Shown: piece after piece, positions 6,400 through 64,000 of the stretch | Position numbering within the stretch: the stretch's first letter is position 1 | Layout: each line of letters opens with the position of its first letter | From: an uncultured Alphaproteobacteria bacterium | GTDB taxonomy: Bacteria > Pseudomonadota > Alphaproteobacteria > RF32 > CAG-239 | Reading direction: 5' to 3' | NCBI GenBank assembly: GCA_944389095.1 | Contig: CALXLC010000010.1 | Location: 22,154-86,153, forward strand | DNA length: 64,000 nucleotides | Program-made: the position numbers and the translations under genes | Notes under the pieces: model-generated | What the model saw: the letters and a program-made list of their open reading frames with translations, nothing else | What the model was told of the DNA's origin: nothing | The model's database searches: none

Positions 6400-9300
6400 A
6401 TGAAGAAAAAGAGTTTTTTCGCTGCTTTTGCAGCACTGTGTGTGATGATTTTGTCAGCCATAACGCTGACAGGCTGTTCCCCCGACGATGAATTCAATAT
6501 GTCGGGAAACCTGAACGGAAACGGAGAACCAACCCCGGATCCTGATTCCGAATGGTATCTGGACGATGTCTGGAAAAACCAATGCGTGTTTGTGCGGGAT
6601 TCAACCCACACCAACACCCCTAACGATTCGGAATCATCAATCGCCATGAGCGGTTTGAAGTATTTTGAACTGACCATCGGCGGAACCTTGGCGGACAGAA
6701 ACGAACTGGCATCTGTCCGGGATACCGGCTTTGTCCGCGGCTACAACGTAAATCTGGCGGCAACCGTTGCCAATTACAAAGTAGTCCTCAAGGACGAAGG
6801 ACAAAATCTCCCTGATTCGGTAGAGATGAAAGACGGCAAATTTACCGTCTGCAACTCTGAAATGCCGGTAACGATTTTGCCGGTGGAAGACGTTTCGCTG
6901 ACCGTCAACGGCGGTCCCGACGGACAAACCGAGTTTGTTTTCGGCACCGATAAAGCCGACGATTTCAAGCTGGAAAGCTCTGAAATCACCAGAGGATACA
7001 TCCTCTTTGGCAAGAAAGGCGCTCTGCAGACCCGGGCCGTTGTGGAAGAAACCACCATCCCGGCAGAAATCCATTTTGTCTGCAAAGACGGTTTGGATTT
7101 GATTTACGGCTATACGGCGGTAATTGCCACTTCGCTGGAAGAACGGGACGAAATTACCGCGGAATTCGTAGACATTACCGATGACGGCTATGTCAAATAC
7201 GAAATTACCCGCACCCACCTTCCCGACGGAACGGTAAACCGCTATCCGGGAATGATCCCCGTCAACGCCGAACTGACTGCTGCGGCAATTGAAAATCAGA
7301 TAAGCGAAAATCCGGGCATCAACTTGACTTCTGCCAGAGAGCGGGAGTACGCCGATGCCGGAGATTACAACTTTGTCTACAACAAGTTCAATTCAACCGT
7401 TAATGCCTCATACATTAATTCGGTAACAGTTGAATTTGAGGGCAATCCTTATCAGATTGAAATTCCCGGCGGTGTATGGGTTACTCAGGCCGGCATCAGC
7501 CAACCCGTGATTGATACCAAAAGCAATGACGATTACACGCTGTATACTTACACGCTGAATTATAACCTGACGTGGAAATACAACGAAATCGCCCGTCCTT
7601 TCAAATATGCCGAAACCACCTTTACGGAATTGGTAGAAAAAGAAAATGACGAAATTGCCGACACTCAGCTGATTCTGACCGAAAACGGCAACAACACCGT
7701 TAAGCTTGAACTGGTTGAGTATCACACCGTCAATCCGGATGTAACCTTAGGCACCTGGGTAGTCCCTGCAGGATTACGTCTCAGCTGTACCCCGGAATTT
7801 ACGATTGAAGACGCCAATCTGGCCCTGAGCGGCGGCGACATTTCGGCCTTGACCTCTTGGACCGCAAACGGTTCGGAACAAGTAACCGACAATGTGACGG
7901 CAACTCGTATCAGCCGGACTTACTCGGCAACCTTCAACCATGGAACGGACCGCGAAATAGAATTCTCTCAATACGAAACCTTTACGGTTTCTTATGAAAA
8001 CAGAACCTATTCCGCATCTGTTGACCGGGCTGCTTTGGAAAGACCGAATATCGAGCTGACCCGCGAGGTCGAGACAACCGAGCTGAGTCAAAAGATTTGG
8101 ACGGTAACTTATACCGCTCAGACCGCAGTCAACGAAGTTGACGCAACTCAGATTTGGACAATCACCCAAAACAAAACGGAAGATACCGGAAACATTGAGC
8201 TGACCGCTCAGGAAAGCGCAAACAATACCGTAACGCTGACCCTGACGGAATATCATACAACCGGAGAAAACACCGTTTTGGGAACCTGGGTTGTCCCCAA
8301 CGGCTTGACCCTGACCTGCACACCTGAGTTCAGCCGTGAAAACGCCGACCAAAGTCTGACCGGCGGAGACCTGAGCACCGTATCGGATTGGAGGGAATCA
8401 ACCACCGAAAGAATTACCGACAACGTAAAGGCCACCCGGATACACAAAACCTATTCGGCAGCCTTTAATCAGGGAACCGACCGCAACATCTCCCTTTCAC
8501 AATACGAAACCTACATTGTAACTTATAATAATGTAGATTATTCGGCATCTGTGAGCCGTGCGGAGATGAATCAAACCGAAATCAGCCTGAGCAGAGAAAG
8601 CGATACTTCGGAAAGATCCGAAACAATCTGGAATGTTGTTTACAGTGCGCACACCGTAAGCAACAGCACCAATGCTTCGCAAATCTGGACGATTTATCAA
8701 AACAAGGAACAGGACGAAGTTGAAAAAATCGAGCTGAGCATTCAGGAAAACGGCAACAACACCGTTACCCTGAACCTGACTGAGTATCATACGCTCAACA
8801 ACGACGTCTTGCTGGTATCTCAAACCGTTCCGGCCGGATTAAGCGTATCCTGCACGCCGGAATTCAACATTGAGAATGACAACACCAGCCTCACCGGAGG
8901 TTCCGTCAGCACCGTCTCGGACTGGAGCAGTCAGGGAACCCGGAATCTGGGAAATAATGTAACGGCAACCCAAATTGCCAAAACATTCTCAGCCGCATTC
9001 AACCATGGAACGGACCGCAATATTACGGTATCTCAGTATGAAAGATTTACGCTGACATACCAAAACACCGAATATTCGGCTTCTGTTATCCGTGCCACTC
9101 TTGACAATGCGGTCATCGGTCAGCCGAGCATTGTAGACAATGCCCAAATGACTCAGAGGAGCTATCCCGTCAGCTACACGGCAAAAACAGCACGAAACAG
9201 CGCAAGCGGTAACCAAACATGGGTTATCACCAGCGAAAAGCCCGATAACATCGTCGACTACCTTGTCGGCAGTGAAGTTATCACTCTCGAAGGAAATCAA

Positions 9301-10218
9301 TATTTCCGCAATGTGAGCGTGACCCCGGTATATTCCGTCTCCGGCAACGGCAGGCCTTATACCGCCAAAATAAACACGCAGTTCACTGTTTCTGACAACG
9401 GAACCATTGTTGTCACCGGAGAAATGGGAAATCTCTCACTGACCCGTGAAACAACTTCAAACATTTCCGCTATCAGAAATGACAGCGTAACCGGCAACCG
9501 GACCAGAACCACATCTGTTTACGCCATCGGCGGCCAAAACCCGATACTCTACACGGAGATTGACGGAGTAGCTGCTCTGCATGGAAAACAGCTGATGACG
9601 CTGGTTCCGGCAACTTCAGCGGTTATTGAAAACACCGGAGAAACTTATCAGGACGGATTATACACCGTGACGGTATACAACATTGTTTATACCATTACCG
9701 TGGACGGCAAGAGCGTTAACCATACGCAAAGACTTGAGAACCGTGTTCTCAATGCTGAGCCGACCATTCCCGGACTGGAAGTTGATCCTGACCGGATTGG
9801 CTCATTTGCCCGCACGGAAGTTTACAACAACGCCCGCAGCATAAAGAGCCAGATTGACGCCGGAATCTTCCGTGAAATAGACAACCCGTCCGTAAAGCAC
9901 TTCGTTGCTTTTGACGTAGCCAGCGGCGCCGTTTTGGTTAACACCGTTGTTTCTGCAAGCGAACTTTCTGTTCTTGATTCCAAGAACGGTTATTGCTCTT
10001 TGTTGAAACTGGATAACCAGCAGCCTGCCGTTCTTTACGGAAATCTGAGCGGCAATAACTACAAACAGGGCTTCGAATACAAAGCCCTCGCAAGTGGTGA
10101 ATTAAATACCTTCTCCGACGCCTCAATTACGTTGGAAAGGTATTCTAACCCCTTGATTAACACCCTGGTTTCCAGAGGCGGTTATTATCAAATGGGTTCG
10201 GACACCATTTACAAATAA
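6400..10218 (+). CDS. Large surface lipoprotein, paralog B (1272 aa), three tandem copies of the ~178-aa repeat module
   Basis: Signal peptide plus lipobox (ITLTGC); N- and C-terminal regions homologous to paralog A; last ~130 codons nearly identical at DNA level to 4820..5207. Confidence 0.8.
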   Translation: MKKKSFFAAFAALCVMILSAITLTGCSPDDEFNMSGNLNGNGEPTPDPDSEWYLDDVWKNQCVFVRDSTHTNTPNDSESSIAMSGLKYFELTIGGTLADRNELASVRDTGFVRGYNVNLAATVANYKVVLKDEGQNLPDSVEMKDGKFTVCNSEMPVTILPVEDVSLTVNGGPDGQTEFVFGTDKADDFKLESSEITRGYILFGKKGALQTRAVVEETTIPAEIHFVCKDGLDLIYGYTAVIATSLEERDEITAEFVDITDDGYVKYEITRTHLPDGTVNRYPGMIPVNAELTAAAIENQISENPGINLTSAREREYADAGDYNFVYNKFNSTVNASYINSVTVEFEGNPYQIEIPGGVWVTQAGISQPVIDTKSNDDYTLYTYTLNYNLTWKYNEIARPFKYAETTFTELVEKENDEIADTQLILTENGNNTVKLELVEYHTVNPDVTLGTWVVPAGLRLSCTPEFTIEDANLALSGGDISALTSWTANGSEQVTDNVTATRISRTYSATFNHGTDREIEFSQYETFTVSYENRTYSASVDRAALERPNIELTREVETTELSQKIWTVTYTAQTAVNEVDATQIWTITQNKTEDTGNIELTAQESANNTVTLTLTEYHTTGENTVLGTWVVPNGLTLTCTPEFSRENADQSLTGGDLSTVSDWRESTTERITDNVKATRIHKTYSAAFNQGTDRNISLSQYETYIVTYNNVDYSASVSRAEMNQTEISLSRESDTSERSETIWNVVYSAHTVSNSTNASQIWTIYQNKEQDEVEKIELSIQENGNNTVTLNLTEYHTLNNDVLLVSQTVPAGLSVSCTPEFNIENDNTSLTGGSVSTVSDWSSQGTRNLGNNVTATQIAKTFSAAFNHGTDRNITVSQYERFTLTYQNTEYSASVIRATLDNAVIGQPSIVDNAQMTQRSYPVSYTAKTARNSASGNQTWVITSEKPDNIVDYLVGSEVITLEGNQYFRNVSVTPVYSVSGNGRPYTAKINTQFTVSDNGTIVVTGEMGNLSLTRETTSNISAIRNDSVTGNRTRTTSVYAIGGQNPILYTEIDGVAALHGKQLMTLVPATSAVIENTGETYQDGLYTVTVYNIVYTITVDGKSVNHTQRLENRVLNAEPTIPGLEVDPDRIGSFARTEVYNNARSIKSQIDAGIFREIDNPSVKHFVAFDVASGAVLVNTVVSASELSVLDSKNGYCSLLKLDNQQPAVLYGNLSGNNYKQGFEYKALASGELNTFSDASITLERYSNPLINTLVSRGGYYQMGSDTIYK
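7672..9270 (+). repeat. Intragenic tandem repeat, 3 x ~534 bp (each ~178 aa: NNTVtLxLxEYHT...TPEF...ATrI.kT.SAaFNhGTDR...SQYET...YSASV)
   Basis: Three successive protein segments of lipoprotein B align with each other and with the single module at ~3735..4270 of paralog A; 38-nt identical stretch (ccggcaggattaagcgtatcctgcacgccggaattcaa) at 3820 and 8822. Confidence 0.7.
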
Positions 10219-17799: not shown

Positions 17800-20700
17800 T
17801 TACCAGGGATCGTCATATCCCAGAGCCGGATCGTTCAACCGGTCACGATAAGACGAATCTCCGGAATTGTACCCGGCACCGCCGGTACTCCGTCCGGTTT
17901 TGGCATACCCCGAACGGAAATTGGCAATCTGGTCATACCCGGTATCAACCAGGTCGCTTTTCCACGACCAGTCGGGGTTAGACATGACGCGCCGTTCAAA
18001 ATAGCAGTAAACATTTGAGATTGCGGTCATTTCCTCGTTATAAACCGGAAACAGGTTCCACACGATTTTTCCGCGCAGACTGTTGGCCGTCGCGCTTCCC
18101 GCCACGTCGGTCAGGTAATCCTGATAATCGGAGCCGTGATACAAAAAGCCCATAATCGCATGCCAGCCCAAAAAGTCGCTGTTGCGGATGGTTCCCATAT
18201 TTCCGCTTGTGGAAGACGTCGAATTGTCACGCACGCCGCTGATGGTCGTGTTCAGCCAGGTATTGGTCTGGAAAGTCATCGGCATACCTTGTTCAAACTC
18301 ATGCGTATGCACACCCGAAGATCCGTCCGCCTCGGCAATAATCAAACGACCGGACGCCGGATCGCGGGGAGCCACAAAATAACTCTTAAACCGCTGAGCG
18401 ACTTCGGTTTCCGGAATTCCCGTCGGCGGCATGGCCACATAATAAGCTTCCGCCATTTTCCAGCGAATGGGATTAATGGTAATAACTTTGGAATAGCCCG
18501 GCGGACATTGGGGAGTCGGCACAAAACCGAGCCACGGCGTCGTAATACAGTCCATATCGCCGTTGCAGTCGCTTGGCTGATTTTCCACAACAATTGAATT
18601 TCCGCTCTGCCGAACCGTATAATCCTCCCAGCTGCGGCTGCCGCTGGTCGGCTCCTCATAAGTATTATCAATAACATAAATACCTTTATTGATAAAGTCG
18701 GGCAAAATATCGCTCAAACGCGCGCCGCCGCGGGTAGTCAGCTTAATATCGTGCATAACCGAGGTATATGCGGGATTAACCTGATAAGCGTCATACGGCT
18801 TAGTCGCGCCGGCCTCACGTTCATTGGCATCCGGTCCCGGAAATTCATAAGCCTGATTGGCCAGCAGCCGGTCTGCTTTAATATAGCCCGGAACATCCTG
18901 CTCACCTTTGTCGGCCTCCAAATCAGAACGATCCGACGTTCCGCCCGCCGGCAGCGAAATCATTCCTTCGCGCCGGATAAGCACGCCGTCATCCAACACG
19001 GTATTGGTAAAAGCTCCCGTACTGTCCGTCACGGACTTGTTGCGGGCATCATTGGCAAAAAGCATTTTGTCTTCGTCAATCACGATATTGTCGGAAACCG
19101 CCTTAATCAGCGTCGCGTCCATTTCAATATTTCCGGTTGTCATTTCCAAACTGGCCGTACTGCCGCCGCCGGCGCCGTAGCTATGCTCCAACAACAGGCT
19201 ATCTTGATTAACGTAAATCGAATTCGGATTCTCTGCACCGGTATTACGAATGGCAATTTGATTGCTTTTTAAATCAACGGTCTGCTTTCCGCCGTTGGCA
19301 CTCAGCCCGATTTCAGTACCGGTAATTTCCGCGCCGCCGGAATCCAACTCCACCTTGCCGCCGAGATCACCGCCGCCTTGTGCCGTCAAAACACCGGAAG
19401 ACAAAGCATCTAACGTTGAATCGGTCACTTTGACCCCGTTGGCGTCATCCAATTTAACAAACGCACCGCTGGCATCCGTACCGACCACCGCGCTTCCCAC
19501 ATACAATTTGGCTTCCGTATCGGAAATCGACAGTCTGTCACCCACCTGCATATTGTTAACGGCAATGTCGACGCTGGAATTATCGGCCAAAAAGTTATAA
19601 GTCCCGTCAGCCATCCGGCCACCGCCCAAAATACCGCGTGCGTAAATATTTTCGGCATCAAAATCACCGCCGATGCTCAAATCATTTTTAATATAAGCGT
19701 TATTCTCTACCAAAAGGCTGCCGTCCGAAGAGTTTGACTGCCCCACAACCAGACTGTAGTTATTGGTATCTCCCGAAAAACCGGAGGCGCCGCTGATTGT
19801 GCCGCCCTTGACATTGACGCCGGAGCTGATTTCAGCACCGCCTTCAACCGTCAGCTTGCCGCTGCCGTCATCGCCTTTTTTAATCTCGGTATCGCCGGTA
19901 ATTGTCGTCTTGCCCGTAATTGAGCTGTCTCCCGTCACGTCAATACCGCCTTCGGTAACCGTAACCTTACCGGCTGCCTTGATTTTATCCGTATCGTTAA
20001 CCAGCAGCAGGCTGTCGGCAATATTGGCGCTGCCTGCCGTCAGCAGATTCGAAATCGTTGCCGCGCCTTCCACGACCAGATTGGCCTCTTTTTGGGTTTC
20101 CCCTTCATCGGCACCGGTAATCAAAACCTCGCCGCTGTCGCTGTCGGCAATCAGGCGGTGAACCTCGCCGATGGAATTACCGCCCATATACAGATTAACC
20201 TGCATGGTGTTGTATTCAACATCGCCCATACTGTCATCACGAAACAAAACATGCTCCGTTCCGGCGCCGGAACTCGCGTTAACCGCATGAATGGAACTCG
20301 AGGCAATACTGCCGTTGGGAGCCGTCCCCAAATCATAGTCACCCAATGCGGCGGCCCATCCGCCCTGCACGCCGTTGGCAACATTATCTTCCACAATGGC
20401 GCCGTTGGCCCCAATCATGGATGCGATTTTGGAAGAACGGACAATCGACAAATCGTTTTTTATCGGCGCCAGCACCAACCCCGTTATCGACGCGTGTTCC
20501 TGAGGCGTACCCTCGTCAACCACACTTTTCTTATACGCCATCTTAAAAGCGGAAAACAATTTTGATTCGTCCAGATTAAACCCGTACGGCAGATACGGCT
20601 CAATATCTTCGGGCAAAACCTCCTGAATATCCGGACTGCCCGACATCGTAAAATCAACGTAATTATCCTTGATGTAGTCATCCAGAGCCTTTGACAGAGT

Positions 20701-20862
20701 ACGCATTTGCGCCGCGGCATTAATATCCTGCAGCTCGGTGGTCCTCTCCGCGGCCTTTTTATACAACACCGGCGTCACCATGGTTATCAGCCCGAGCATG
20801 GCCAGAGCCTCCACCATCATGCTGCCCTTCTGGGCCGATTTGTAATTAAAACGTTTCAACAT
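17800..20862 (-). CDS. Giant (1020 aa) TadE/TadG-like pseudopilin-like protein with Gly-rich repeats
   Basis: N-terminus KGSMMVEALAMLGLITMVTPVLY matches the TadE/prepilin leader (G then hydrophobic stretch with Glu at +5); remainder Gly/Ser/Asn/Asp-rich repetitive; GAGGAG RBS. Confidence 0.6.
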   Translation of the reverse strand: MLKRFNYKSAQKGSMMVEALAMLGLITMVTPVLYKKAAERTTELQDINAAAQMRTLSKALDDYIKDNYVDFTMSGSPDIQEVLPEDIEPYLPYGFNLDESKLFSAFKMAYKKSVVDEGTPQEHASITGLVLAPIKNDLSIVRSSKIASMIGANGAIVEDNVANGVQGGWAAALGDYDLGTAPNGSIASSSIHAVNASSGAGTEHVLFRDDSMGDVEYNTMQVNLYMGGNSIGEVHRLIADSDSGEVLITGADEGETQKEANLVVEGAATISNLLTAGSANIADSLLLVNDTDKIKAAGKVTVTEGGIDVTGDSSITGKTTITGDTEIKKGDDGSGKLTVEGGAEISSGVNVKGGTISGASGFSGDTNNYSLVVGQSNSSDGSLLVENNAYIKNDLSIGGDFDAENIYARGILGGGRMADGTYNFLADNSSVDIAVNNMQVGDRLSISDTEAKLYVGSAVVGTDASGAFVKLDDANGVKVTDSTLDALSSGVLTAQGGGDLGGKVELDSGGAEITGTEIGLSANGGKQTVDLKSNQIAIRNTGAENPNSIYVNQDSLLLEHSYGAGGGSTASLEMTTGNIEMDATLIKAVSDNIVIDEDKMLFANDARNKSVTDSTGAFTNTVLDDGVLIRREGMISLPAGGTSDRSDLEADKGEQDVPGYIKADRLLANQAYEFPGPDANEREAGATKPYDAYQVNPAYTSVMHDIKLTTRGGARLSDILPDFINKGIYVIDNTYEEPTSGSRSWEDYTVRQSGNSIVVENQPSDCNGDMDCITTPWLGFVPTPQCPPGYSKVITINPIRWKMAEAYYVAMPPTGIPETEVAQRFKSYFVAPRDPASGRLIIAEADGSSGVHTHEFEQGMPMTFQTNTWLNTTISGVRDNSTSSTSGNMGTIRNSDFLGWHAIMGFLYHGSDYQDYLTDVAGSATANSLRGKIVWNLFPVYNEEMTAISNVYCYFERRVMSNPDWSWKSDLVDTGYDQIANFRSGYAKTGRSTGGAGYNSGDSSYRDRLNDPALGYDDPW

Positions 20863-24606: not shown

Positions 24607-27159
24607 TTGAAGCGCACGGGCAGAAATATCCTGTATTTTGTTTTAGGCGGCCTTTGGCTGACGATTGCGGCGGCAAATGCGGAAGAACCTTCCGACATCA
24701 AAATAGAAAACCTGCCGCAGCCGGCACGAACCGGACAGGTTAACGTCACGACGGAACGCAGCCTGACAACTTTGTCGTCAATCGGCGCACAACAGGTCCT
24801 TCCCGCCACCAATCAAATCGCAAGCCTGAGTTTTTCTTGGAACACTCCCGTTAATCTGGCCGTCTTTCAACGTCAGAAAAAACTTTGGATTGTATTTGAC
24901 CACCGGCAGGCCATTGACGTCAAAGAACTCAAAAAAACAGCCGGCGATCTGGCCTCAAACATTGTGCAGCTGCCGCACCCGAATGCTGCCGTCATCCAGA
25001 TGGTTCCGGCCGAGGGCGTTCGTTATTCCGTTCGTAAAGAAGGATTGCTGTGGATTATGGACCTCTTCAGAAATGACCTCCCCAAGCGGCCGGTCAAAGA
25101 CGTTACCATCTACACACAGCAAGACAGCCTGCAACATGCCTATATGTTTATTCCGACTGAAAATTCGGGAAATATCGTCAACGTTATCGATCCCGATGTC
25201 GGTGATATCATCTCCGTTGCCCCGACCGCCGACATCGGCTACGGCGTCAACAATCCCTACCATTACCCCGAGTTTGATTTGCTGAACACGGAACAAGGCG
25301 TTGCCATGGCAATGAAAGCGCCTGATATAACAATCTCCAGAACCAACACCGGCCTGCTCATCAGAGCACCCGAAAGAGGCCTTAGCATATCCAAAGACTT
25401 AGACAATCTGCGCCGCAAAGAACTCTACAGCAAACGGGGAGAAACCCTATACGGCTTTGATTTTGAAGTTTCCCCCCAACTTTTGAATATGAATTTTACC
25501 GATGCCGTCAACCAGCTTAAGCAAGATATTTTGGCCGCCCCGCAAAACAGCAGAAACCAGGTGCGGCTTGAACTGGTCAAATACTATCTGGCCAAAGGCC
25601 TGGGTACCAATGCCCTGACTATGCTGGAACAGATGCTGCGCGCCAAACTTCCCGAAACGACCAGCGCCAAGTTTCATGCGCTGCTGGGAATTGCCAACTT
25701 TTTGGTTCGCCGTTATCCTGAAGCTGTCAAAGAATTTGAATATGGCAATCTTCCCGAAAACGATGACGCCGTATTTTGGCGCAGTTTGGCGCAAAGCGCT
25801 TACCAACACAAAGAAGAAAACAACGCCGTTTTATTTGCCTACCTGCCGCTGATTCGCGAATATCCTCAGGAAATCCGCGACCGCATTGCCGCTATCGGTG
25901 CGGCAACGGCCTTGCGTGCCGGAGATGATTTGGCCGCCCAAAATTTCATAGACATCTTGAAAAGAGATGACGGCAGATTAAAAAACCGGGACACCCAAAT
26001 CGATTACCTATCCGCCAAAAAAACCGAACTTCAGGGATACCCGCGCAACGCCATTCGGGAATACACCCGCATCGGCGAAATGGATGACCTCCGTTACTCG
26101 TCGCTGGCCCGTTATGACAATGCCGTCCTGCGGCAGCAAATCGGTACTTTGCCGCTCAAAGAAGCTATTGCGGAGTTGGAGCGGCTGCGCTTTGCCTGGA
26201 GCGAAAAGGATTTCAAATGGAATTTGCTCAACCGGCTGGCACAATACTATGAAAAAGATTTTGATTATTACAATGCCCTCAAAACAATGAAAGAATCCCT
26301 GATTCTGGCCGACCCTGCCCAAAAAGAAACAATGCTCCGAAAAATGGTCGGCCTGTTTGAAGACATCTTCATTGACAACCGGGGAGACAGCAAACTTTCT
26401 GCCGTAAAAGCCCTTGCCCTGTATAACGACTTTGAATGGCTCGGCCGCCTCAGTCCCCGCCATAACGAAATTACCATCAAACTGGCTGACCGGCTGGTCG
26501 CCGTAGATTTGTTGCCGCGGGCGGGAGACCTGTTGGAACAGGTATTGGCCGACACCTCAAAGCTCACACCGTTGGAACAGGCCAAAGTCGGCGCCAGAAT
26601 GGCCGTCATTCTGCTCTTTGACAACAAATATGACAGCGCACTCGAAATTCTGGAAGAAACCGAATCAGACAACCTTCCCTACCAAATTCAGGCACAGCGG
26701 CGCGTCATCAAAGCCCGAGCCCTGGCCAGCACCAACCGGGTAGACGAAGCTCTGGAACTTCTGGCCGAAGATACCGGTAAAAACGCCATTATGCTGAAAA
26801 GCGAAATCTACTGGAATGCCGGCCAGTGGAACAATGTGGCGGACACAATTAAATACCTGATAGAAAAACCCAAACCGGGACAAGAGCTCTCTCCCGAACA
26901 AATCGGTTATATACTGGATTGGGCGACTGCGCTGAAAAAATCCGGACGGGAAACAGTTTTGGTCAGACTTCGCAACAAGTTTAAACCTTATTTTGATAAA
27001 ACCAAATACAGCAGCACTTTTAATATCTTGACCAATCACCTGGAAACAGATAAGGTTGATTTAAAGGAAATTAATAATATAGTAAACGACGTACAAATGT
27101 ACAGCAACTTTACCAAAATTTATAATGAGTCGTTTAAGGAAGAATCCGACAATAAATGA
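24607..27159 (+). CDS. Large secreted TPR-repeat protein (850 aa) at the end of the flagellar block
   Basis: Signal peptide ([10 protein letters not shown]), multiple TPR-like helical repeats; TTG start. Confidence 0.55.
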
Positions 27160-55093: not shown

Positions 55094-56389
55094 TCATCTC
55101 CGTTGAGAAAAAATAGTCCGCCGCGGCTGGGCATTCAGCATCCTCTGAATATAGCGCCCCTGATAAAGATTAATTCCCAGAGAATTTCCCACTTCTACCG
55201 CCTGCGGATCATCAATCCGGCACAAAATCATCTTGGCCCGCTCGGCCTTATTGACATAATCCATAAAATGCTTGTCTTCATGAATCACATCCATAAAAGA
55301 CGGATGCCAGATTATCTTAATCAAATCACAATTCAGATTTTGGCGGTTCAGATATTTCAGTTTGTCCACCGTAATTCCGTCAATGCAGATTTTATAGCCT
55401 CTGGCCTGAGCAAAGGCCTTCGCCAGCATAAAAGCCTTAATATCGCTGAAAATATCGGCCAACTGCAATTCCAGAATAACCGACGGTTTCATAAAAGTAT
55501 TGATATTATCGTCAAACTCCAGAAATTCATCGGAAAGGATGGTTGAAACATTAATATTTACACTAAAATTCCCGGCCAGAGAATTATCGTCATGGCGGCT
55601 GATAGTTTCCAAAACACGTTTATCCAAAGTTTCGCTTAAAGACAAAAACAGCCACGGATTCGCCGTCAAATCCACATCCGGTAGCAGCATATCGCGCAAA
55701 TCCGGTATTGCCACATAGACTTCCTCAAACACCCTCTGCGGCGCAGCCTTGCCGATAACCGCGCAAATGGCCTGCCGACGGATAAAGCTGGAAAAATCTG
55801 CAACAGCCAATATTTTCTGAACTTTTGCCAACATTTCCGGCGTCAAAACCCGGCGCAGCCTTTTGCCGGTAGAATTAAACACCGAAACTCCGGACGTCAA
55901 CTTTGCACCTTTTGCTGCCGAACTGCGTTGACTGCCGTCCTTTGCTTCATCGGAAGAAGTCGCCTGAAGCTGACTGCGAACCATAGCCCGGAAATCCGCG
56001 GCACTCTCTTTCAAATCAAAAAAGACGACCAGCCCGCCCTGCTCCAAATCATCAATATCTCGCACGGCAGGATCATCATGCAGCAAAAACCGGATTTTCA
56101 CCAGACAGGCCTTAACTTCATCATCAAAATTCCGGTTATAAAAAACCAAAACATCATCATTGGGAAGAGCAAAAATTTCGCCTTTTGATTTGCGGACAAC
56201 TTCTTCAAAAGTTTCCACAAAAACCTGACGCTGCAACAGCTTGGCGCCTTGTTCCTGCAATTTTCCGACTTTAAAACATAATACCTTGAAAAAAGCAATA
56301 TCTTTTTCGATTTTTTTCATATAATCGAAAATAACGGTATCCTGCCTGACCAGTGTATTTTCCGAACCTCTGATAAAAGAAATTCCCAT
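55094..56389 (-). CDS. Degenerate GGDEF-EAL tandem-domain protein (paralog 1, 431 aa; predicted non-catalytic)
   Basis: GGDEF position reads LPNDDVLVF; EAL-like C-terminus with FSVNINVST, KICIDGITVDK (vs DDFGTGYSS), GINLYQGRYIQR (vs G..aQGYlfsrP). Confidence 0.6.
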   Translation of the reverse strand: MGISFIRGSENTLVRQDTVIFDYMKKIEKDIAFFKVLCFKVGKLQEQGAKLLQRQVFVETFEEVVRKSKGEIFALPNDDVLVFYNRNFDDEVKACLVKIRFLLHDDPAVRDIDDLEQGGLVVFFDLKESAADFRAMVRSQLQATSSDEAKDGSQRSSAAKGAKLTSGVSVFNSTGKRLRRVLTPEMLAKVQKILAVADFSSFIRRQAICAVIGKAAPQRVFEEVYVAIPDLRDMLLPDVDLTANPWLFLSLSETLDKRVLETISRHDDNSLAGNFSVNINVSTILSDEFLEFDDNINTFMKPSVILELQLADIFSDIKAFMLAKAFAQARGYKICIDGITVDKLKYLNRQNLNCDLIKIIWHPSFMDVIHEDKHFMDYVNKAERAKMILCRIDDPQAVEVGNSLGINLYQGRYIQRMLNAQPRRTIFSQRR

Positions 56390-56392
56390 AAC

Positions 56393-57673
56393 CTAACCCA
56401 ATACCTTATCCAAACATTCCGGCTGCGAGCATTCGCGGCGCAATAACCCCGACAAAACCCTTTTCCTTTTCAAACACTCGACAACCTTACAATTTTTACC
56501 GTCCGGGCAGCCGGAACGGATAACCGCAGCCTCCAGAGCATCGATATACGGCCCCTGAAAAGTATCCATACCGTAGCCGACACCCCACCGCACCGCTTTT
56601 TCATCGGTACATTTGGCCAACACCACATTTTCCCGGCCCAGTCCGTCCACCACCTGACGCAGCTCTTCGTTTTGCGTATCATATTCCATCAGCGGTTCCC
56701 AGAAAATTTTAACCATATCAGGTTCCAGTCTTTTCACATTGAGCATGTGCAACATATCCGGAGACATCGCGTCAATCAAAAGTTTGTGTCCGCCGCTGTG
56801 TAACAGTTCTTTGGCCTCAAAATATGTGTTAAGACTGTTTAAAACATCCATAACCTGAACTTCGACAATAAGTTTTCTGTCATCGTGCAGAAAATTTTTT
56901 GCAAAATCCACAAATTCACGGGAAAAAATCGAGCTTAGATTCAAATTCAGGCTAACCTGATCGGGCCAAACCGTCAGCTCTGCGCCGCGAAAGGCCTCCA
57001 TGGTCTTCTTATCCAAAGCCTGGGTCAGATACAAAAACAACCATTTGTTTCCGGTCAGGTCGATACTGCGATTATACTTGCGGCTCAAATCCTTAACCGC
57101 CACAAAAAACTCCTGAAAAACCACCTCAAATTTCTGAGGCGGCGTAATCCGCATCACACTCTGATGTTTAACGATTTCCGCCAAATCAATATTATCCAGA
57201 TGATCAATAACATCCGTAACCTGCCCTGCTTCCAGAGGCGTACCGGGAAAAACATGTTGAACGTCAGGAGCCCCGTTTTCAACCATATTTTCAATAATCC
57301 GGTAAAGGCGGACAAAATCCTCCGGAAAGACGTAAATATGAGCAAATTCATCTGCGCTTTCCGCCAACAGCAGCGGATCGCTTGACAAGCCCTGGCGGAT
57401 TTTCCCGACTGCGTTATCCACCATTTCGGGATTGATGTTTTTGCCGAGCAGCGCAAAATCGTCATTGCTGAGAACCGAAAGCATCCCCTCGCTGGCACCG
57501 ACCAAATCGTCAAACATTTTGGCCATGACTTTAACAAACGCCGGATGACGGTTTTTGGGTTTCAACTTGGAAACGCTGACATACAGCACCGAATAGCCCT
57601 GAGAATTCCGGGCAATTCGGTTCAGAGCGTCCAGTAAAAACTTTTCATTTGCAAAATTTCCGGCATAGACCAT
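56393..57673 (-). CDS. Degenerate GGDEF-EAL tandem-domain protein (paralog 2, 426 aa; predicted non-catalytic)
   Basis: GGDEF position reads LSNDDFALL; EAL-like C-terminus with LSLNLNLSS, KLLIDAMSPD, GMDTFQGPYI; collinear with paralog 1. Confidence 0.6.
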   Translation of the reverse strand: MVYAGNFANEKFLLDALNRIARNSQGYSVLYVSVSKLKPKNRHPAFVKVMAKMFDDLVGASEGMLSVLSNDDFALLGKNINPEMVDNAVGKIRQGLSSDPLLLAESADEFAHIYVFPEDFVRLYRIIENMVENGAPDVQHVFPGTPLEAGQVTDVIDHLDNIDLAEIVKHQSVMRITPPQKFEVVFQEFFVAVKDLSRKYNRSIDLTGNKWLFLYLTQALDKKTMEAFRGAELTVWPDQVSLNLNLSSIFSREFVDFAKNFLHDDRKLIVEVQVMDVLNSLNTYFEAKELLHSGGHKLLIDAMSPDMLHMLNVKRLEPDMVKIFWEPLMEYDTQNEELRQVVDGLGRENVVLAKCTDEKAVRWGVGYGMDTFQGPYIDALEAAVIRSGCPDGKNCKVVECLKRKRVLSGLLRRECSQPECLDKVLG

Positions 57674-57866
57674 CTGTTCATAAACCTTAACAGCAAAAAC
57701 ATCTGAACTATATAATAACCATGCTTTACCCCTTTAGCAAGCAAATTACCGCAATTGTCCTTCCCAAAATTAAGCCGGCCGCCATTACCGAAAATCACTA
57801 TTGCCTTTTTGAAACGAAATTTATATAATTTTTTATTATAATTATTTTTAAGCAAAGTGAGGACAG

Positions 57867-58109
57867 ATGGCATCAACAATCAAAGTCTGCATGGGAAGTT
57901 CCTGTTTTGCCCGCGGCAACGCCAAAAATCTACAATTAATTCAAAAATATCTGGCGGAAAACGGGCTTGAAGCCGAAGTCGAACTGACCGGCCTGCGTTG
58001 CTGCGACAAGTGCTCCAAGGGTCCCAACCTGACCATTGACGGTGTTGAATATAATAATATTGACACCGGAACTCTGCTTGACATTCTGGAAAAACACTTC
58101 AAAAAATAA
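57867..58109 (+). CDS. Thioredoxin-like [2Fe-2S] ferredoxin (NuoE/HydC-like small protein, 80 aa)
   Basis: Cys pattern C-x4-C ... CC-x2-C (VCMGSSCFARG ... CCDKCSKGP). Confidence 0.65.
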   Translation: MASTIKVCMGSSCFARGNAKNLQLIQKYLAENGLEAEVELTGLRCCDKCSKGPNLTIDGVEYNNIDTGTLLDILEKHFKK

Positions 58110-58148: not shown

Positions 58149-59912
58149 ATGTCAAACCGCGATTTTCCCCTCTATACCGTCAAAACAGACTGTCAGGACT
58201 GTTACAAATGCGTCCGCCGTTGTCCTGTCAAGGCCATTAAAATAGAAGACAGTTCGGCCATGATTGTCACGGATCTCTGCATTGCCTGCGGTATTTGCTA
58301 CAAAGTCTGCCCGGCCAAGGCCAAACAAATGCGCAATGATCTTCCCCGCGCCAAATTTCTGGTCAAATCAGGCAAAGAAATATATATTTCTCTGGCGCCT
58401 TCCTGGGTAACCGAATTCCCCGAATACTCGGCGGAACAACTGATTGCGGCCATCCGCCGGCTGGGCATCCGCGGTGTCAGCGAAACGGCTCTCGGCGCCG
58501 AAGAAGTTTCCGCCGAAACCGCCCGGATTTTGGACAAGGCCGATTCTGGACTGTTTATCTCCACGGCGTGCCCGACCGTCGTCGAATACGTCGAAAAATA
58601 CCTGCCCGAACTCACGCCCAATCTTGTCGGCGTCAGTTCTCCCCTTTTGGCGCACTGCCGCCTGCTTAAAGAAGAATACGGCGCCGGCATCGAGACCATT
58701 TTTGTCGGCCCCTGTATTGCCAAAAAACTGGAAGCCGACCGCCATCCCGAGCTGTTAAGCCTGAGCCTCAGCTTTGCAGACTTGCGGCAGTGGCTGAAAG
58801 ACGAAGACATTGACCCCGCATCACTCAAGCCCGGCGTATTTGACGTATTTGTTCCCCGCCGAGCCAAAGAAGGAGCCGCCTACCCGATAGAAGGCGGAAT
58901 GATTGAAACGCTCAAACCCTACCCTTCCGCAAAAAAAGCTTACCTCATGCAGCTGACCGGCATTTATAACATTGAGCGGGAACTCGAAAACCTTCGAAAT
59001 ACGGCCTTCAAGCAACCTGTTTTTATTGAAGCGCTGGCCTGCCCCGGCGGCTGTATCAACGGTCCCTGTACAACCGACAGACAATCCGGTCTGGATAAAC
59101 GAATGGAAGTTCTCCGCAATACCGAATTTGACGACAATGCCGGTAAACGCACGCCTGCCCATGACATCCGCCTCAATTATGCTTCCGATACCGTCGTCGA
59201 ACCCGAATTTTCCGAAAGCGACATCAAAAAGGTTCTTGCAAAAATCGGAAAATATACGCAGGAAGACGAACTCAACTGCGGCGGCTGCGGCTATGACACC
59301 TGCCGCAACTTTGCCCGCGCCCTGCTTGAAGGCAAAGCTGAACCGGAAATGTGCGTTTCTCACATGAAACAACAGGCCCAGCGCAAAGCCAATGCGCTGA
59401 TTCGCTGTATTCCTTCGCCGATAGTCATTGCCGATGCCAAACTGAACATTATGGAATATAATGACGAATTCCGCGATGCCTTTTGGAACGAGGAAGAACA
59501 TGCGGATATTTATGATTATGAGAATCTCCGCGGCGCCAACCTGCGAGACTTTATCAATTTTACCAACCTTTTTTCCGCCTCCCTGGATTTGGAACAGGAT
59601 ATTCGCCGCGAACATATCCGTCAGGATGACCGTGTATTCGACGTTGTGGTCTTCAATATAGATAAAAAACAAAGCGTCGGCGGCATCATTGAAGACGTGA
59701 CCAATGTTGAAATGCACAAAGAACAAATTGCCGCTAAAGCCAAAGAGGTTATTCACAAAAATCTGGCAACGGTCCAGCAAATAGCCTGTACGTTGGGCGA
59801 ACACATGGCCGAAACCGAGGTACTGCTCCGGTCCATCGCCAAAGATTACTCCTCCGAACAGGAACCGTCCGGACTGACTATCCGTACCAACTCGGCCAAA
59901 AGAGAGTACTGA
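58149..59912 (+). CDS. hydS: Sensory-type [FeFe]-hydrogenase homologue with C-terminal PAS domain (HydS-like)
   Basis: Two CxxCxxCxxxCP ferredoxin motifs; H-domain motifs L1 ISTACPTV (TSCCP with first Cys replaced by Ala), L2 GPCIAKKLE, L3 EALACPGGCINGP; then PAS-like ~120 aa. Confidence 0.75.
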   Translation: MSNRDFPLYTVKTDCQDCYKCVRRCPVKAIKIEDSSAMIVTDLCIACGICYKVCPAKAKQMRNDLPRAKFLVKSGKEIYISLAPSWVTEFPEYSAEQLIAAIRRLGIRGVSETALGAEEVSAETARILDKADSGLFISTACPTVVEYVEKYLPELTPNLVGVSSPLLAHCRLLKEEYGAGIETIFVGPCIAKKLEADRHPELLSLSLSFADLRQWLKDEDIDPASLKPGVFDVFVPRRAKEGAAYPIEGGMIETLKPYPSAKKAYLMQLTGIYNIERELENLRNTAFKQPVFIEALACPGGCINGPCTTDRQSGLDKRMEVLRNTEFDDNAGKRTPAHDIRLNYASDTVVEPEFSESDIKKVLAKIGKYTQEDELNCGGCGYDTCRNFARALLEGKAEPEMCVSHMKQQAQRKANALIRCIPSPIVIADAKLNIMEYNDEFRDAFWNEEEHADIYDYENLRGANLRDFINFTNLFSASLDLEQDIRREHIRQDDRVFDVVVFNIDKKQSVGGIIEDVTNVEMHKEQIAAKAKEVIHKNLATVQQIACTLGEHMAETEVLLRSIAKDYSSEQEPSGLTIRTNSAKREY

Positions 59913-59914
59913 GC

Positions 59915-61090
59915 ATGAACAGTTCGCTTTTTATTGAAATCGGCAGTGCCCAGCAGCAAAAATATGGTGAAGACTGCTACGGCGACACGATTTATTCAAA
60001 AAAAATTCCGGAAGAGCAGCGAATTATCTCGATTCTCTCGGACGGGCTGGGCAGCGGCGTTAAAGCCAACATCTTGTCCTCCATGACCACGCGTATGGCC
60101 ATGAAGTTCGTAGAAAGCCACATGGAACTGTTGCATTCCTCCGAAGTAATGATGGACGCTTTGCCGGTTTGCCAGATTCGCAAAATAAGTTATGCCACTT
60201 TTTCAATTGTTGACAGTGAACTGGAGGGCAAAACCCGTATTTTTGAAATGGACAATCCGTCCTTTATGCTGATTCGCGACAACAAAGCGCTCAATGTCCG
60301 CTACCGCGAACTCTCCTCTGCCAAGTGGAAAGACCGTACCATTAATGTTTCTCAGGTCACCAATCAGGAAGAAGACCGTATCATCTTAATTTCCGACGGC
60401 GTCAGCCAGGCGGGACTGGGCAACCCCAAATACCCGCTCGGCTGGCAACGACAGGGCTGTCTGGATTTCGCCCTGCAGCAAATTCGCAAAAAGCCGCATA
60501 TTTCCGCGCACGATTTGGCGCATGACATTGTCAACGAGGCTTTGAACAAAGAGGTGGACGGCAAAGCAGGCGACGACATCAGCTGCGTCGTACTTTATTT
60601 TCGCAAACCGCGAAAACTTCTGGTTTTAACGGGCCCGCCGTTTGATGAAGACAAAGACCGCGAATTTGCCGAGCTTGTTTCCGATTATGACGGAAAAATT
60701 GCCATCTGCGGCGGAACCACAGCCAACATCATTGAGCGGGAACTTTGCCTCAAATGTGAAATTGACAAAACCTCGTTTGACGAAAAAATTCCGATGGCAT
60801 CGACCATGGAAGGCGTCGATTTGGTGACCGAAGGCATTTTAACCTTGACGGAAGTTTATCGTATGCTAAAAGAAGGTATCGACACGCCGAAACAAAATGC
60901 TGCCGTCAGGCTGACAAACCTGCTTTTGGGCAGCGACAAGATTGATTTTGTGGTCGGCACCAAAATCAACGTGGCGCATCAGGACCCCAATCTTCCGATG
61001 GAGTTAGAGATTCGCCGCAACATTGTTAAAAAAATATTCAGAATTTTGCAGGATAAATACCTCAAAGAAATCAGCGTCAGATATATTTAG
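59915..61090 (+). CDS. PP2C/SpoIIE-family Ser/Thr protein phosphatase
   Basis: PPM-type metal-binding blocks (ILSDGLGSG, ILISDGVSQ, GDDISCVVL); 2-nt gap after hydS. Confidence 0.75.
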   Translation: MNSSLFIEIGSAQQQKYGEDCYGDTIYSKKIPEEQRIISILSDGLGSGVKANILSSMTTRMAMKFVESHMELLHSSEVMMDALPVCQIRKISYATFSIVDSELEGKTRIFEMDNPSFMLIRDNKALNVRYRELSSAKWKDRTINVSQVTNQEEDRIILISDGVSQAGLGNPKYPLGWQRQGCLDFALQQIRKKPHISAHDLAHDIVNEALNKEVDGKAGDDISCVVLYFRKPRKLLVLTGPPFDEDKDREFAELVSDYDGKIAICGGTTANIIERELCLKCEIDKTSFDEKIPMASTMEGVDLVTEGILTLTEVYRMLKEGIDTPKQNAAVRLTNLLLGSDKIDFVVGTKINVAHQDPNLPMELEIRRNIVKKIFRILQDKYLKEISVRYI

Positions 61091-61104: not shown

Positions 61105-61377
61105 ATGGAAAAGATAAAAGTAAAAATTTGTGTCGGAACTTCCTGCTTTGTCATGGGAGCGGCTCAGATTCAAACTCTGGAATTCAATGCCCCGGCCGAT
61201 ATTGCCGACAAAATCGAAATTCTTGAAGAGCGGTGCATGAACCTCTGCAAAGAACTTCATACAAAATACAACCGCGGCCCCTTCGTCCGTGTCAATGAAG
61301 AATTGATTGAAGAGGCAACCTACGAAAAAGTTGTTGCAAAAATTCGCGAAGTATTGCAAAAACAATCCTGCAAATAA
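61105..61377 (+). CDS. Thioredoxin-like [2Fe-2S] ferredoxin paralog (90 aa)
   Basis: VKICVGTSCFVMG ... CMNLCKE; same fold signature as 57867..58109. Confidence 0.6.
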   Translation: MEKIKVKICVGTSCFVMGAAQIQTLEFNAPADIADKIEILEERCMNLCKELHTKYNRGPFVRVNEELIEEATYEKVVAKIREVLQKQSCK

Positions 61378-61472: not shown

Positions 61473-62933
61473 ATGCTTATACCCAAAAACAATGCCAACC
61501 TGATGCGGACCAAAATACTGATAAAGCTGGTCGAAAGTTATCTGCACGACAAGTTTGACAACGCGGACCGCATTCCGCTCGATCTCCGGCCCAAAGACGG
61601 TCCGTCCAGCCGATGCTGCGTTTATAAAGACCGCGCGGTTTTAAAATACCGCTGCATGGCAGGGCTCGGACATTGTCCGGAAGAAGAAACCGATGAGTTA
61701 ATCAGCCTCAAAGAATACGGCAAACAGGCGCTTGAGCGCACCCATGCCGCCAAAAACAAACTGTCGGTTATTGATATTGCCTGCTCGGCCTGCGTAAAAT
61801 CGCAATACGTCATTACGGATGTCTGCCGCGGCTGCTTTGCCCAACCTTGCCGGCTTAATTGTCCCAAAGAGGCAATTTCCATCATCAACGGTCGCGCTCA
61901 CATTGACCCGGAAAAATGCGTCAACTGCGGCAAATGTTACGAAGTATGCCCGTATCATTCGGTTGTCAAAATTCCCGTTCCCTGTGAGGAAGCCTGTCCG
62001 GTCGGAGCCATCACCAAAGATGAAAAAGGCAAAGAACACATTGATACCGAAAAATGCATTTCCTGCGGAAAATGTCTGGCTTCATGCCCGTTTGGCGCAA
62101 TTGTCGAGCGGTCGCAGATTATTGACGTTCTCCGTGAAATCAAAGAAACCGATCACCGGGTCGTTGCCATGTTGGCTCCGGCGATTCTCGGACAATTTCC
62201 CGGCTCTGTCAACAATCTGGTGGGTGCTCTGAAACAGGTCGGATTCAGCGACGTTATTGAAGTTGCCGTCGGCGCGGACATCACCACGCAAAAAGAAGCC
62301 GCCGAATTTATCGAAAGAATGGAGCAGGGACAAAACTTTATGACCACCTCCTGCTGCCCGGCATACTTCCGTGCCGCACAGGTTCACATGCCGGAAGTTG
62401 CGCCGCATGTTTCTTCAACCAAAACGCCGATGTATTACACGGCTGAACTGGTCAAAAAAGAAGATCCAGGCTGCATTGCCGTATTCGTCGGCCCCTGCCT
62501 CGCCAAACGCGCCGAGGCCGAATACGATCCCAACGTAGACTATGTGCTGACTTTTGAAGAATTAGGTGCCATTCTGGTGGCTTCGGGCATCAATGTTGAC
62601 GAATGTCCCGAAGAGCCGTTCAGCAAAATATCCCATGCCCAGGGACGGCAATTTCCTGTCACCGGCGGTGTTGCCGGTGCCGTTGCCAGCCTGATTGGCG
62701 ATAAAGTTGAAATCCGCACCGAAAAGATTGACGGCCTGACCAAAGAAAGTATCAAGCTGCTCAAGCGTTATGCCGCCAAAGGTTCAGAAAACAACATGCT
62801 GGAAGTTATGTGCTGCGAAGGCGGCTGTGTTTCCGGCCCCGGTTGTATAGCTTTGTCCAAGAAAGCTGCCCGGGCTGTTGACGCTTATGCGCAAACCGGC
62901 GAGCAACTGACGCCAGAGACCAAAATCGGATAG
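61473..62933 (+). CDS. hydA: Monomeric catalytic [FeFe]-hydrogenase (ferredoxin-dependent type)
   Basis: N-terminal Cys clusters including two CxxCxxCxxxCP motifs; intact H-cluster motifs L1 TTSCCPAY, L2 GPCLAKRAE, L3 EVMCCEGGCVSGPG. Confidence 0.85.
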   Translation: MLIPKNNANLMRTKILIKLVESYLHDKFDNADRIPLDLRPKDGPSSRCCVYKDRAVLKYRCMAGLGHCPEEETDELISLKEYGKQALERTHAAKNKLSVIDIACSACVKSQYVITDVCRGCFAQPCRLNCPKEAISIINGRAHIDPEKCVNCGKCYEVCPYHSVVKIPVPCEEACPVGAITKDEKGKEHIDTEKCISCGKCLASCPFGAIVERSQIIDVLREIKETDHRVVAMLAPAILGQFPGSVNNLVGALKQVGFSDVIEVAVGADITTQKEAAEFIERMEQGQNFMTTSCCPAYFRAAQVHMPEVAPHVSSTKTPMYYTAELVKKEDPGCIAVFVGPCLAKRAEAEYDPNVDYVLTFEELGAILVASGINVDECPEEPFSKISHAQGRQFPVTGGVAGAVASLIGDKVEIRTEKIDGLTKESIKLLKRYAAKGSENNMLEVMCCEGGCVSGPGCIALSKKAARAVDAYAQTGEQLTPETKIG

Positions 62934-62943
62934 TCAAAAAAAT

Positions 62944-62982
62944 AAAAATCCCGGAAGTTGCAAAAACTTCCGGGATTTTTTA
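62944..62982 (+). terminator. Rho-independent terminator after hydA
   Basis: aaaaatcccggaagttgcaaaaacttccgggattttt. Confidence 0.65.
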
Positions 62983-63099: not shown

Positions 63100-64000
63100 T
63101 TAATATTTAACACAACTGTCACCAGACAATGAGATATAAGTTCCGTTGTGGCAGGAGACAAGGCTGTATCTCGTTCCTCCGCTGGCAACCGAGCAGTCAG
63201 GACCTATAATTTGACACTCTTTGCAATAGCCGTTGGCAGGGCAAGAACGTAATGTATAAAAGCATGTATTGGTACAACTCTTCTTAACGCAACTGGTACC
63301 CGACTGTTCATATCCGGAGTTGCAGGTCCAGGCCGCACATTTGCTCGGGCAGTCGCTGTAGTAACTCGAGCAGGTGGCATTGGACGGAACACTGACCGCC
63401 GTTCTGTTATCGCAGGGATCCGGATTCTTCGACACACAGCTTCCGCTGATACAATCTTCATCACTCGAACATTTATAGCTGCCGCAAGTGTTATAATAGG
63501 TTGTACCGTTTCTGACACAAGAATCAGAACCGACATTCCGACAAACACCCCGGCAATATCCCTCGCTGAGAGTATAGGTACAAGTATTCTCAGCAACGCA
63601 ACTGCTTCCGGATTTTTTATATCCCGAGTTACAGGACCAGGCCGAACATTTGCTCGGGCAGCTGCTGTAATAGTTTGAGCAGAAGGCGTTAGCCGGAACA
63701 CTGACAGCCGTCACACTGTCGCAAGGATCTTCGGTTTTACACAAATAACAGGTTCCCGAAGTTGCGCCGCAAGAACATTCTTTAGGCGCCGTAGCCGTAT
63801 AACCGTTGGAGCAAGACGTGCTGTATCCGCTCGGACAATAATAGGTATGACTGTGCGACGGTGCGGAATCACACTTATACCAGGTTTTTCCGGTGCAATT
63901 ATCATAACAACTGCTTGCCCCGTAAGTACAAGACGACGAAGACGAGTAGTTATATCCCGAACAATTACTGGTACAAGCCGGTTCTTCTTCACAGGCCGTG
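63100..64000 (-). CDS. Secreted cysteine-rich tandem-repeat protein (5' end beyond window)
   Basis: ~90-aa repeats of DPCD.(T/R)TAVSVP.NA.CS.YYS.CPSKC.AW.CNSGY..SG.SCV; the reading frame stays open upstream of the TTG at ~63743 to the window edge. Confidence 0.6.
   Translation of the reverse strand, partial: TACEEEPACTSNCSGYNYSSSSSCTYGASSCYDNCTGKTWYKCDSAPSHSHTYYCPSGYSTSCSNGYTATAPKECSCGATSGTCYLCKTEDPCDSVTAVSVPANAFCSNYYSSCPSKCSAWSCNSGYKKSGSSCVAENTCTYTLSEGYCRGVCRNVGSDSCVRNGTTYYNTCGSYKCSSDEDCISGSCVSKNPDPCDNRTAVSVPSNATCSSYYSDCPSKCAAWTCNSGYEQSGTSCVKKSCTNTCFYTLRSCPANGYCKECQIIGPDCSVASGGTRYSLVSCHNGTYISLSGDSCVKY

Follow-up and report, generated by a model that had tools for sequence, protein, structure and literature searches.

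A putative H2-sensing group C [FeFe] hydrogenase in an hfs-type operon of a gut alphaproteobacterium

The gene described here lies in a 64,000-nt stretch of DNA (the window) from contig CALXLC010000010.1 of an uncultured Alphaproteobacteria bacterium (assembly GCA_944389095.1). It encodes a 587-residue protein resembling HydS, the putative sensory [FeFe] hydrogenase, and sits in a five-gene unit that encodes, in order, a small thioredoxin-like [2Fe-2S] protein, HydS, a SpoIIE/PP2C phosphatase, a second thioredoxin-like protein and a group B [FeFe] hydrogenase (HydA). An initial annotation had described the protein as HydS-like, with the ligands of the H-cluster retained and the proton-relay cysteine lost. 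The features of the gene are as follows, with residues numbered as amino acids (aa) of HydS.

58149-59912, plus strand: HydS-like putative sensory [FeFe] hydrogenase of group C (M2f), 587 aa (open reading frame (ORF) list, Pfam, HMMER, AlphaFold2 (AF2))
58182-58322, plus strand: N-terminal ferredoxin-like domain with two CxxCxxCxxxCP [4Fe-4S] motifs, aa 12-58 (Pfam Fer4 families)
58374-59066, plus strand: H-domain, aa 76-306 (Pfam PF02906, Fe_hyd_lg_C, E 7e-45)
58560-58574, plus strand: motif L1, STACP, aa 138-142; A140 replaces the proton-relay cysteine (C299 of the hydrogenase CpI), and C141 corresponds to C300, a [4Fe-4S]H ligand
58707-58733, plus strand: motif L2, GPCIAKKLE, aa 187-195; G187 replaces CpI M353, and C189, K192 and E195 correspond to C355, K358 and E361
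59028-59054, plus strand: motif L3, EALACPGGC, aa 294-302; L296 replaces CpI M497, and C298 and C302 correspond to C499 and C503
59277-59354, plus strand: C-terminal Cx2Cx4Cx16C motif (C377, C380, C385, C402) for an accessory [4Fe-4S] cluster (Pfam PF04060, "putative Fe-S cluster", E 1.5e-11, aa 375-403)
59406-59699, plus strand: divergent PAS domain, aa ~420-517, five strands plus helices (AF2, Pfam matches of homologues, profile)
59700-59861, plus strand: C-terminal helical hairpin, aa 518-571 (AF2 helices 518-549 and 553-571), a candidate output or docking element

Domains of the HydS-like protein

The cysteines of the N-terminal [4Fe-4S] motifs were invariant among homologues. When the model of the H-domain was searched with Foldseek, it matched CbA5H, HydA1 of T. 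kivui HydABC, DdHydAB and CpI at E values of 1e-17 to 1e-20. A motif scan found the exact Cx2Cx4Cx16C pattern, known from HydS (PMC8163306), at aa 377-402. Sequence and profile searches of the PDB found no structure of a group C or group D enzyme.

Beyond this motif, assignment of the C-terminus drew on structure prediction and on homologues. With 90 diverse homologues as input, the AF2 model reached a mean predicted local distance difference test score (pLDDT) of 92.4 and a predicted template modeling score (pTM) of 0.85; a shallow alignment of close relatives reached only pLDDT 58. The model placed a five-stranded sheet with intervening helices, the topology of a PAS domain, at aa 425-516 (pLDDT 87-96). 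Across the same region, 48 of 80 full-length homologues matched Pfam PAS_8 (E<=1e-3), and others matched PAS_9, PAS or PAS_4. A profile of the region retrieved almost exclusively PAS structures from the PDB (E 3e-4 to 0.012), including a histidine kinase PAS (E 2.7e-4), 9qq6, Aer2, DcuS and YtvA/YF1, the YF1 match running on into the post-PAS helix. The presence of a C-terminal PAS domain in HydS is thus supported by the predicted fold and by its homologues. The helical hairpin that follows contains KNLxTVQxIAxLLGENAAETE, the best-conserved C-terminal motif of HydS homologues.

A 327-aa antisense ORF (58821-59804, minus strand) lies wholly within the HydS gene. Because it is the sense frame that is conserved, the antisense ORF is probably spurious.

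Active-site residues and their conservation

Alignment by HMMER with solved group A enzymes placed the three motifs of HydS on TSCCP, MPCxxKxxE and ExMACxGGC. The motif equivalences were drawn with CpI and with HydA of T. kivui and T. maritima. In L1, the proton-relay cysteine is replaced by A140 (codon GCG at 58566-58568), and the neighboring [4Fe-4S]H-ligating cysteine is retained as C141. Two variant chains of CpI fixed the register independently of residue counting: the C299A chain (6gly) departs from other CpI chains exactly at the A140 column, and the S319A chain (6gm4) exactly at the V160 column. The alignment also equated R126 with CpI E282, K130 with R286, Y245 with F417 and S164 with S323, and P84/S85 correspond to P231/S232. 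E123 was paired with E279 in one alignment and with E278, leaving a gap at E279, in another; this column varies in the family.

All four cysteines that bind the H-cluster are present (C141, C189, C298 and C302), whereas the group A proton pathway is missing (C299 to Ala, S319 to Val, E282 to Arg) and both second-sphere methionines are gone (M353 to Gly, M497 to Leu). The initial annotation had read L1 as STACP with Ala for the proton-transfer cysteine, L3 as having exchanged its Met for Leu, and the remaining cysteines as intact, and each of these readings held in the CpI alignment. Its description of L2 as intact was right for the Cys, Lys and Glu, but the Met of this motif is Gly187. The protein lacked the prototype motifs of group A and scored 99.2 bits against TIGR02512 (cut-off 405.95); against the group B model TIGR04105 it scored 181 bits (cut-off 450).

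We then asked how common this active site is among relatives. Searching 1.84 billion representative proteins with HMMER returned 832 relatives at E<=1e-30, of which the best 150 were counted. These share 30-47% identity, and most align near full length, some of the sequences being truncated. At the C299 position, Ala was found in 113, Ser in 14 and Cys in 10; at the M353 position, Gly in 136; and at the M497 position, Leu in 114, Met in 14 and Ser in 8. The complete Ala/Gly/Leu triad was present in 89 of the 150 representatives. Near-invariant were the H-cluster cysteines, the equivalents of K358, E361 and P231/S232, and the four C-terminal cysteines. The active site of the window HydS is therefore the consensus of a large family and not a chance pattern. 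The substitutions are the hallmark of a family already described, and not a new discovery.

CpI is severely impaired by the exchanges C299A and M497L (PMC10055695), which could be read as a sign that HydS is a decaying or non-functional paralogue whose active-site changes reflect lost function. We consider this extremely unlikely. Homologues in many phyla, at 30-47% identity, have kept both the full-length architecture and the exact substitutions, and none of the cluster ligands varies. Among close relatives, conservation is highest in the C-terminal region. A pseudogene was rejected as an explanation, since conservation effectively refutes it.

Two characterized putative sensory hydrogenases provided references for the substitutions. 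In groups C and D, C299 is "exchanged mostly into alanine", as in A131 of TmHydS and A137 of TamHydS (PMC10407848), and M353/M497 are Gly/Ser in TmHydS and Ser/Leu in TamHydS (PMC8163306, PMC10055695). In group C, M353 gives way to a small residue (Gly, Ser or Thr) and M497 is not conserved; group D has Ser or Thr in place of M353. The two groups share a pair of N-terminal [4Fe-4S] motifs and a C-terminal Cx2Cx4Cx16C motif, to which only group C (M2f) adds a PAS domain (PMC8163306, PMC10055695). Both enzymes show low activity (PMC10055695, PMC8163306, PMC10407848).

TmHydS (Thermotoga maritima, group C/M2f; Chongdar et al. 2018; PMC10055695) has the domain order of the window protein, namely two [4Fe-4S] motifs, H-domain, Cx2Cx4Cx16C and PAS, and shares with it the substitutions of C299 by Ala, M353 by Gly and F417 by Tyr (Y245 in the window HydS). 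The sequence comparison covered segments of TmHydS read from its mutagenesis primers, which match the window HydS closely. Among these segments, L1 (ITTACPVVV in TmHydS, ISTACPTVV in the window) and L2 (VFVGPCIAKK and IFVGPCIAKK) are near-identical. The segment pairs recovered are VPFITTACPVVVN in TmHydS versus GLFISTACPTVVE in the window, DFPIVFVGPCIAKKS versus IETIFVGPCIAKKLE, ARFYPTTDG versus GAAYPIEGG and, for L3, FIEASACYGSC versus FIEALACPGGC. The two proteins differ at the M497 position, which is Leu in the window and Ser267 in TmHydS, and in their hosts, a mesophilic alphaproteobacterium and a thermophile. S267 of TmHydS has been proposed to form a hydrogen bond to [4Fe-4S]H and so to raise its potential (PMC10055695). 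Leu cannot make such a bond, and the [4Fe-4S]H potential of the window HydS may therefore be more like that of TamHydS.

TamHydS (Thermoanaerobacter mathranii, group D/M2e; PMC8163306, PMC10407848) shares with the window HydS the exchanges of C299 for Ala and M497 for Leu as well as the Cx2Cx4Cx16C motif, and it too adjoins a catalytic hydrogenase. However, it has no PAS domain and carries Ser at the M353 position, whereas the window HydS has a PAS domain and Gly187, which places the latter outside group D (M2e).

Immediately before a conserved GG (YPxEGGM) stands E248 of the window HydS (58890-58892). The residue at this position is acidic (Glu or Asp) in 113 of the 150 family representatives; CpI has Thr. 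For TamHydS, an alternative proton pathway through E252/E289/S249/D265 has been proposed and reported as group D-specific (PMC8163306, PMC10407848). By analogy with E252, we hypothesize that E248 is a candidate alternative proton relay.

The operon and its neighborhood

The features that surround the HydS gene in its operon are listed here.

57687-57716, plus strand: promoter-like site upstream of the first operon gene, TTAACA-18-TATAAT (consensus scan, 11/12 matches; a consensus match only)
57867-58109, plus strand: small thioredoxin-like [2Fe-2S] ferredoxin, 80 aa (Cys8, 13, 45, 49), in the HfsA position (Pfam 2Fe-2S_thioredx, E 1e-7)
59915-61090, plus strand: SpoIIE/RsbU-type PP2C Ser phosphatase, 391 aa, with its start codon 2 nt past the HydS stop (Pfam SpoIIE)
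61105-61377, plus strand: second small thioredoxin-like [2Fe-2S] protein, 90 aa (Cys9, 14, 44, 48) (Pfam 2Fe-2S_thioredx, E 6e-5, just under the cut-off)
61473-62933, plus strand: group B monomeric [FeFe] hydrogenase, 486 aa, in the HfsD/HydA2 position (NCBIfam TIGR04105, 535.9 bits, cut-off 450)
62944-62980, no strand assigned: 16-bp GC-rich hairpin between A and T runs, resembling a bidirectional terminator, at the operon end (sequence scan)

The motifs of the downstream HydA read TSCCP, GPCLAKRAE and EVMCCEGGC. It thus keeps both TSCCP (aa 292-296 of HydA) and the L3 Met (in EVMCCEGGC, aa 444-452), in agreement with the initial annotation. HydA also has Gly at the position of CpI M353 (62490-62516) and an extra Cys in L3 (62802-62828); the exchange of M353 for Gly is thus common to both hydrogenases of the operon. 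Each of the two thioredoxin-like genes (Cx4C...Cx3C) directly precedes one of the two hydrogenase genes.

In a profile search, the N-terminal 224 aa of the phosphatase matched SpoIIE, RsbX and related structures. All 32 orthologues aligned retain its metal-binding aspartates (D24, D43, D161, D220 and D221). The C-terminal ~160 aa (aa 235-391, window 60618-61087) are strongly conserved in all 32 aligned orthologues and include the motifs GGTTA, VGTKINEAHQDP and ELEIRRNIVK; sequence searches of this domain gave no match in Pfam or the PDB.

To assess how far the gene order is conserved, we counted neighboring genes in 80 species-representative genomes from many phyla, with denominators that vary by arrangement (loci L005-L084; L025:3041-3670 and L072:2382-5021 are example neighbor loci). 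Alphaproteobacteria, Lentisphaerae, Planctomycetes, Melainabacteria, Spirochaetes, Acidobacteria and Bacteroidales were among the groups covered. A phosphatase gene lay immediately 3' of HydS in 72/73 loci, and a small ferredoxin gene immediately 5' in 69/78. A group B HydA followed the module in 35/59 loci, most of which also had a homologue of the second thioredoxin-like protein; none followed in the other 24. Recurrent neighbors in other phyla were Rex (11 loci), AdhE (9), NuoE/NuoF-like proteins (7-8) and the HydE/HydF maturases (4-6).

The closest relatives were metagenome-assembled genomes of uncultured gut Alphaproteobacteria, some labelled "Azospirillum sp.". They keep the whole operon together with two divergently transcribed EAL-like genes, at 57-89% protein identity. 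[FeFe] hydrogenases and maturases have been reported earlier in such gut Rhodospirillales, with no mention of the sensory type (PMC4967309).

The gene order is that of hfsABCD of Thermoanaerobacterium saccharolyticum/thermosaccharolyticum, in which HfsA is a small protein, HfsB a PAS-hydrogenase, HfsC a serine phosphatase and HfsD a ferredoxin-linked [FeFe] hydrogenase. The window operon differs by one extra gene, the second thioredoxin-like [2Fe-2S] protein between phosphatase and HydA. The arrangement also resembles HydS-HydA2 of Ruminococcus albus. Both systems were compared through their published descriptions, and unlike them the window operon belongs to a Gram-negative gut alphaproteobacterium. 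HfsA has been called "not alignable to any known protein" in the literature. In Thermoanaerobacterium, both hydrogenase activity and the expression of adhE went up when hfsB alone was deleted, pointing to a function in regulation. The adjacency of AdhE and Rex genes in other phyla echoes this hfsB-adhE link.

These comparisons bear on the possibility that HydS is a genuine catalytic subunit, part of a multimeric H2-evolving "Hfs" hydrogenase with the two thioredoxin-like proteins and HydA and serving not in signalling but in electron routing or in turnover that is slow yet of physiological relevance. As in multimeric hydrogenases, two NuoE/HydC-like [2Fe-2S] proteins are encoded in the operon; deletion of hfsABCD lowers H2 production in Thermoanaerobacterium; and TmHydS has measurable activity, above that of CpI C299A (PMC10055695). 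On the other hand, the group A proton pathway is absent from the window HydS, and its PAS domain and obligate linkage to a phosphatase are features of signalling. In addition, hfsB deletion alone raised hydrogenase activity, hfsD alone restores the phenotype, and 24/59 loci have no group B HydA after the module. We regard a catalytic subunit as quite unlikely.

Divergent from the hydrogenase operon lie two genes for paralogous proteins of ~430 aa with weak, apparently degenerate EAL domains (55094-56389 and 56393-57673, minus strand). Relatives keep this pair next to the operon (57-63% identity), other phyla do not, and in one relative a gene for a hybrid kinase/receiver protein is interposed. 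Elsewhere, the window mostly carries housekeeping genes (UvrB, GlmS, FabF, QueA, MDH, FtsY, XseA, MutY and FliM). Five large ORFs of 642-1272 aa matched no Pfam family at E<=1e-5 (8-1936, 2454-5207, 6400-10218 and 24607-27159, plus strand; 17800-20862, minus strand). A cysteine-rich ORF of 214 aa (63100-63744, minus strand, possibly continuing to 63992) had no Pfam or NCBIfam match and contains an internal repeat of ~100 aa, C..TAVSVP.NA.CS.YYS.CPSKC.AW.CNSGY..SG.SCV.

Proposed role in H2 sensing

The sequence features of group C were all found in the window HydS, namely the H-cluster cysteines, the changes at C299, M353 and M497, the [4Fe-4S] motifs and the PAS domain. The SpoIIE/PP2C gene that begins 2 nt past the HydS stop, and the adjacency of a phosphatase in nearly all loci counted, fit subgroup C3 of HydDB, described as "phosphatase-linked (putative)" (PMC5037454); a literature search on "group C3" together with phosphatase found nothing. 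The gene order is of the hfsABCD type, with the one extra small thioredoxin-like gene. We conclude that the ORF likely encodes a group C (M2f, HydS/HfsB-type; HydDB C3) putative H2-sensing [FeFe] hydrogenase, which would react slowly with H2 and signal through the phosphatase. The earlier view that the protein is slow and sensory, of the HydS type, and not a catalytic enzyme is likewise supported by homology.

Since the four cysteine ligands and the equivalents of K358, P231/S232 and E361 are kept, HydS should bind a normal H-cluster. Slow reaction with H2 would be expected from the absence of the group A proton pathway and of both methionines, and by analogy with the characterized enzymes we infer slow turnover and altered redox tuning. 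In the mechanism that we propose, H2 would react slowly with HydS, shifting its redox state instead of carrying flux. The H2-dependent state would pass through the C-terminal [4Fe-4S] cluster, the PAS domain and the helical hairpin to the translationally coupled SpoIIE-type PP2C phosphatase, whose phospho-target would in turn adjust the expression or activity of the co-operonic, ferredoxin-dependent group B HydA and the fermentative redox balance. The small thioredoxin-like [2Fe-2S] protein encoded upstream probably exchanges electrons with HydS.

Several observations weigh against this proposal. In TamHydS, H2 elicits no response from the C-terminal cluster (PMC13104023), which calls for caution with a simple redox-relay model. 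Because TmHydS retains measurable turnover (PMC10055695), no sharp line divides "sensory" from "slow catalytic". The PAS matches of the window HydS itself were subthreshold (E 0.078 and 0.17 in Pfam, searched with the C-terminal 188 aa alone). No kinase, STAS, anti-sigma or other obvious PP2C substrate gene was conserved near the module in the 80 loci. Finally, a Pfam search of the 37 window ORFs revealed no hydEFG maturase genes, which says little for a 64-kb window when the contig of a relative spans ~1.9 Mb.

The unresponsive C-terminal cluster of TamHydS would also suit a sensor of redox or ferredoxin state rather than of H2, in which the FeS clusters, with or without the [2Fe] subcluster as in Nar1/Narf-like pseudo-hydrogenases, report electron load to the PAS domain and phosphatase. 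The Rex genes that adjoin the module in 11 loci and the dedicated small ferredoxin encoded upstream of HydS point the same way. Against this stand the near-invariance of the residues that hold the [2Fe] subcluster (K192, P84/S85 and E195, equivalent to K358, P231/S232 and E361) and of the four cysteines, and the uptake of [2Fe]adt and reaction with H2 by both TmHydS and TamHydS (PMC8163306, PMC10055695). We judge a redox or ferredoxin-state sensor to be very unlikely and favor H2 sensing.

A more specific version of H2 sensing is speculative and, as a whole, rather unlikely. Here the thioredoxin-like ferredoxin, HydS and the PP2C phosphatase would form a self-contained three-protein H2-responsive switch, with the C-terminal domain of the phosphatase docking on the PAS domain and hairpin of HydS. 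Because no STAS or anti-sigma gene and no kinase is conserved nearby, the substrate would not be a classical STAS/anti-sigma partner; it would be encoded elsewhere or belong to the hydrogenase machinery, and in this alphaproteobacterial lineage the switch might feed the adjacent pair of degenerate EAL (c-di-GMP-type) proteins.

In principle, H2 sensing by HydS would resemble the regulatory [NiFe] system HoxBC-HoxJ (group 2b, Cupriavidus necator), which also has a low-activity hydrogenase, a PAS-containing partner and phospho-signalling that controls hydrogenase genes. The two differ in that HoxBC-HoxJ belongs to an unrelated family with another cofactor and has a histidine kinase/response regulator, not a PP2C phosphatase, as its output.

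The window HydS is an uncharacterized, ordinary member of the known group C/C3 HydS proteins in an hfs-type operon. On the question of how signals leave [FeFe]-type H2 sensors (PMC11376134, PMC13104023), the locus offers nothing that is qualitatively new. The comparative data do sharpen the signalling question: in nearly every locus the sensor gene lies between genes for a small [2Fe-2S] ferredoxin and for a SpoIIE-type phosphatase with a conserved extra domain, and no kinase or STAS partner is conserved nearby. As a HydS from a mesophilic gut alphaproteobacterium with the consensus Ala/Gly/Leu site, the protein could serve as a model to set against TmHydS, a thermophilic enzyme with Ser in place of M497. 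The locus also provides an example, from gut Alphaproteobacteria, of putative H2-responsive regulation acting on a "colonic-type" group B hydrogenase.

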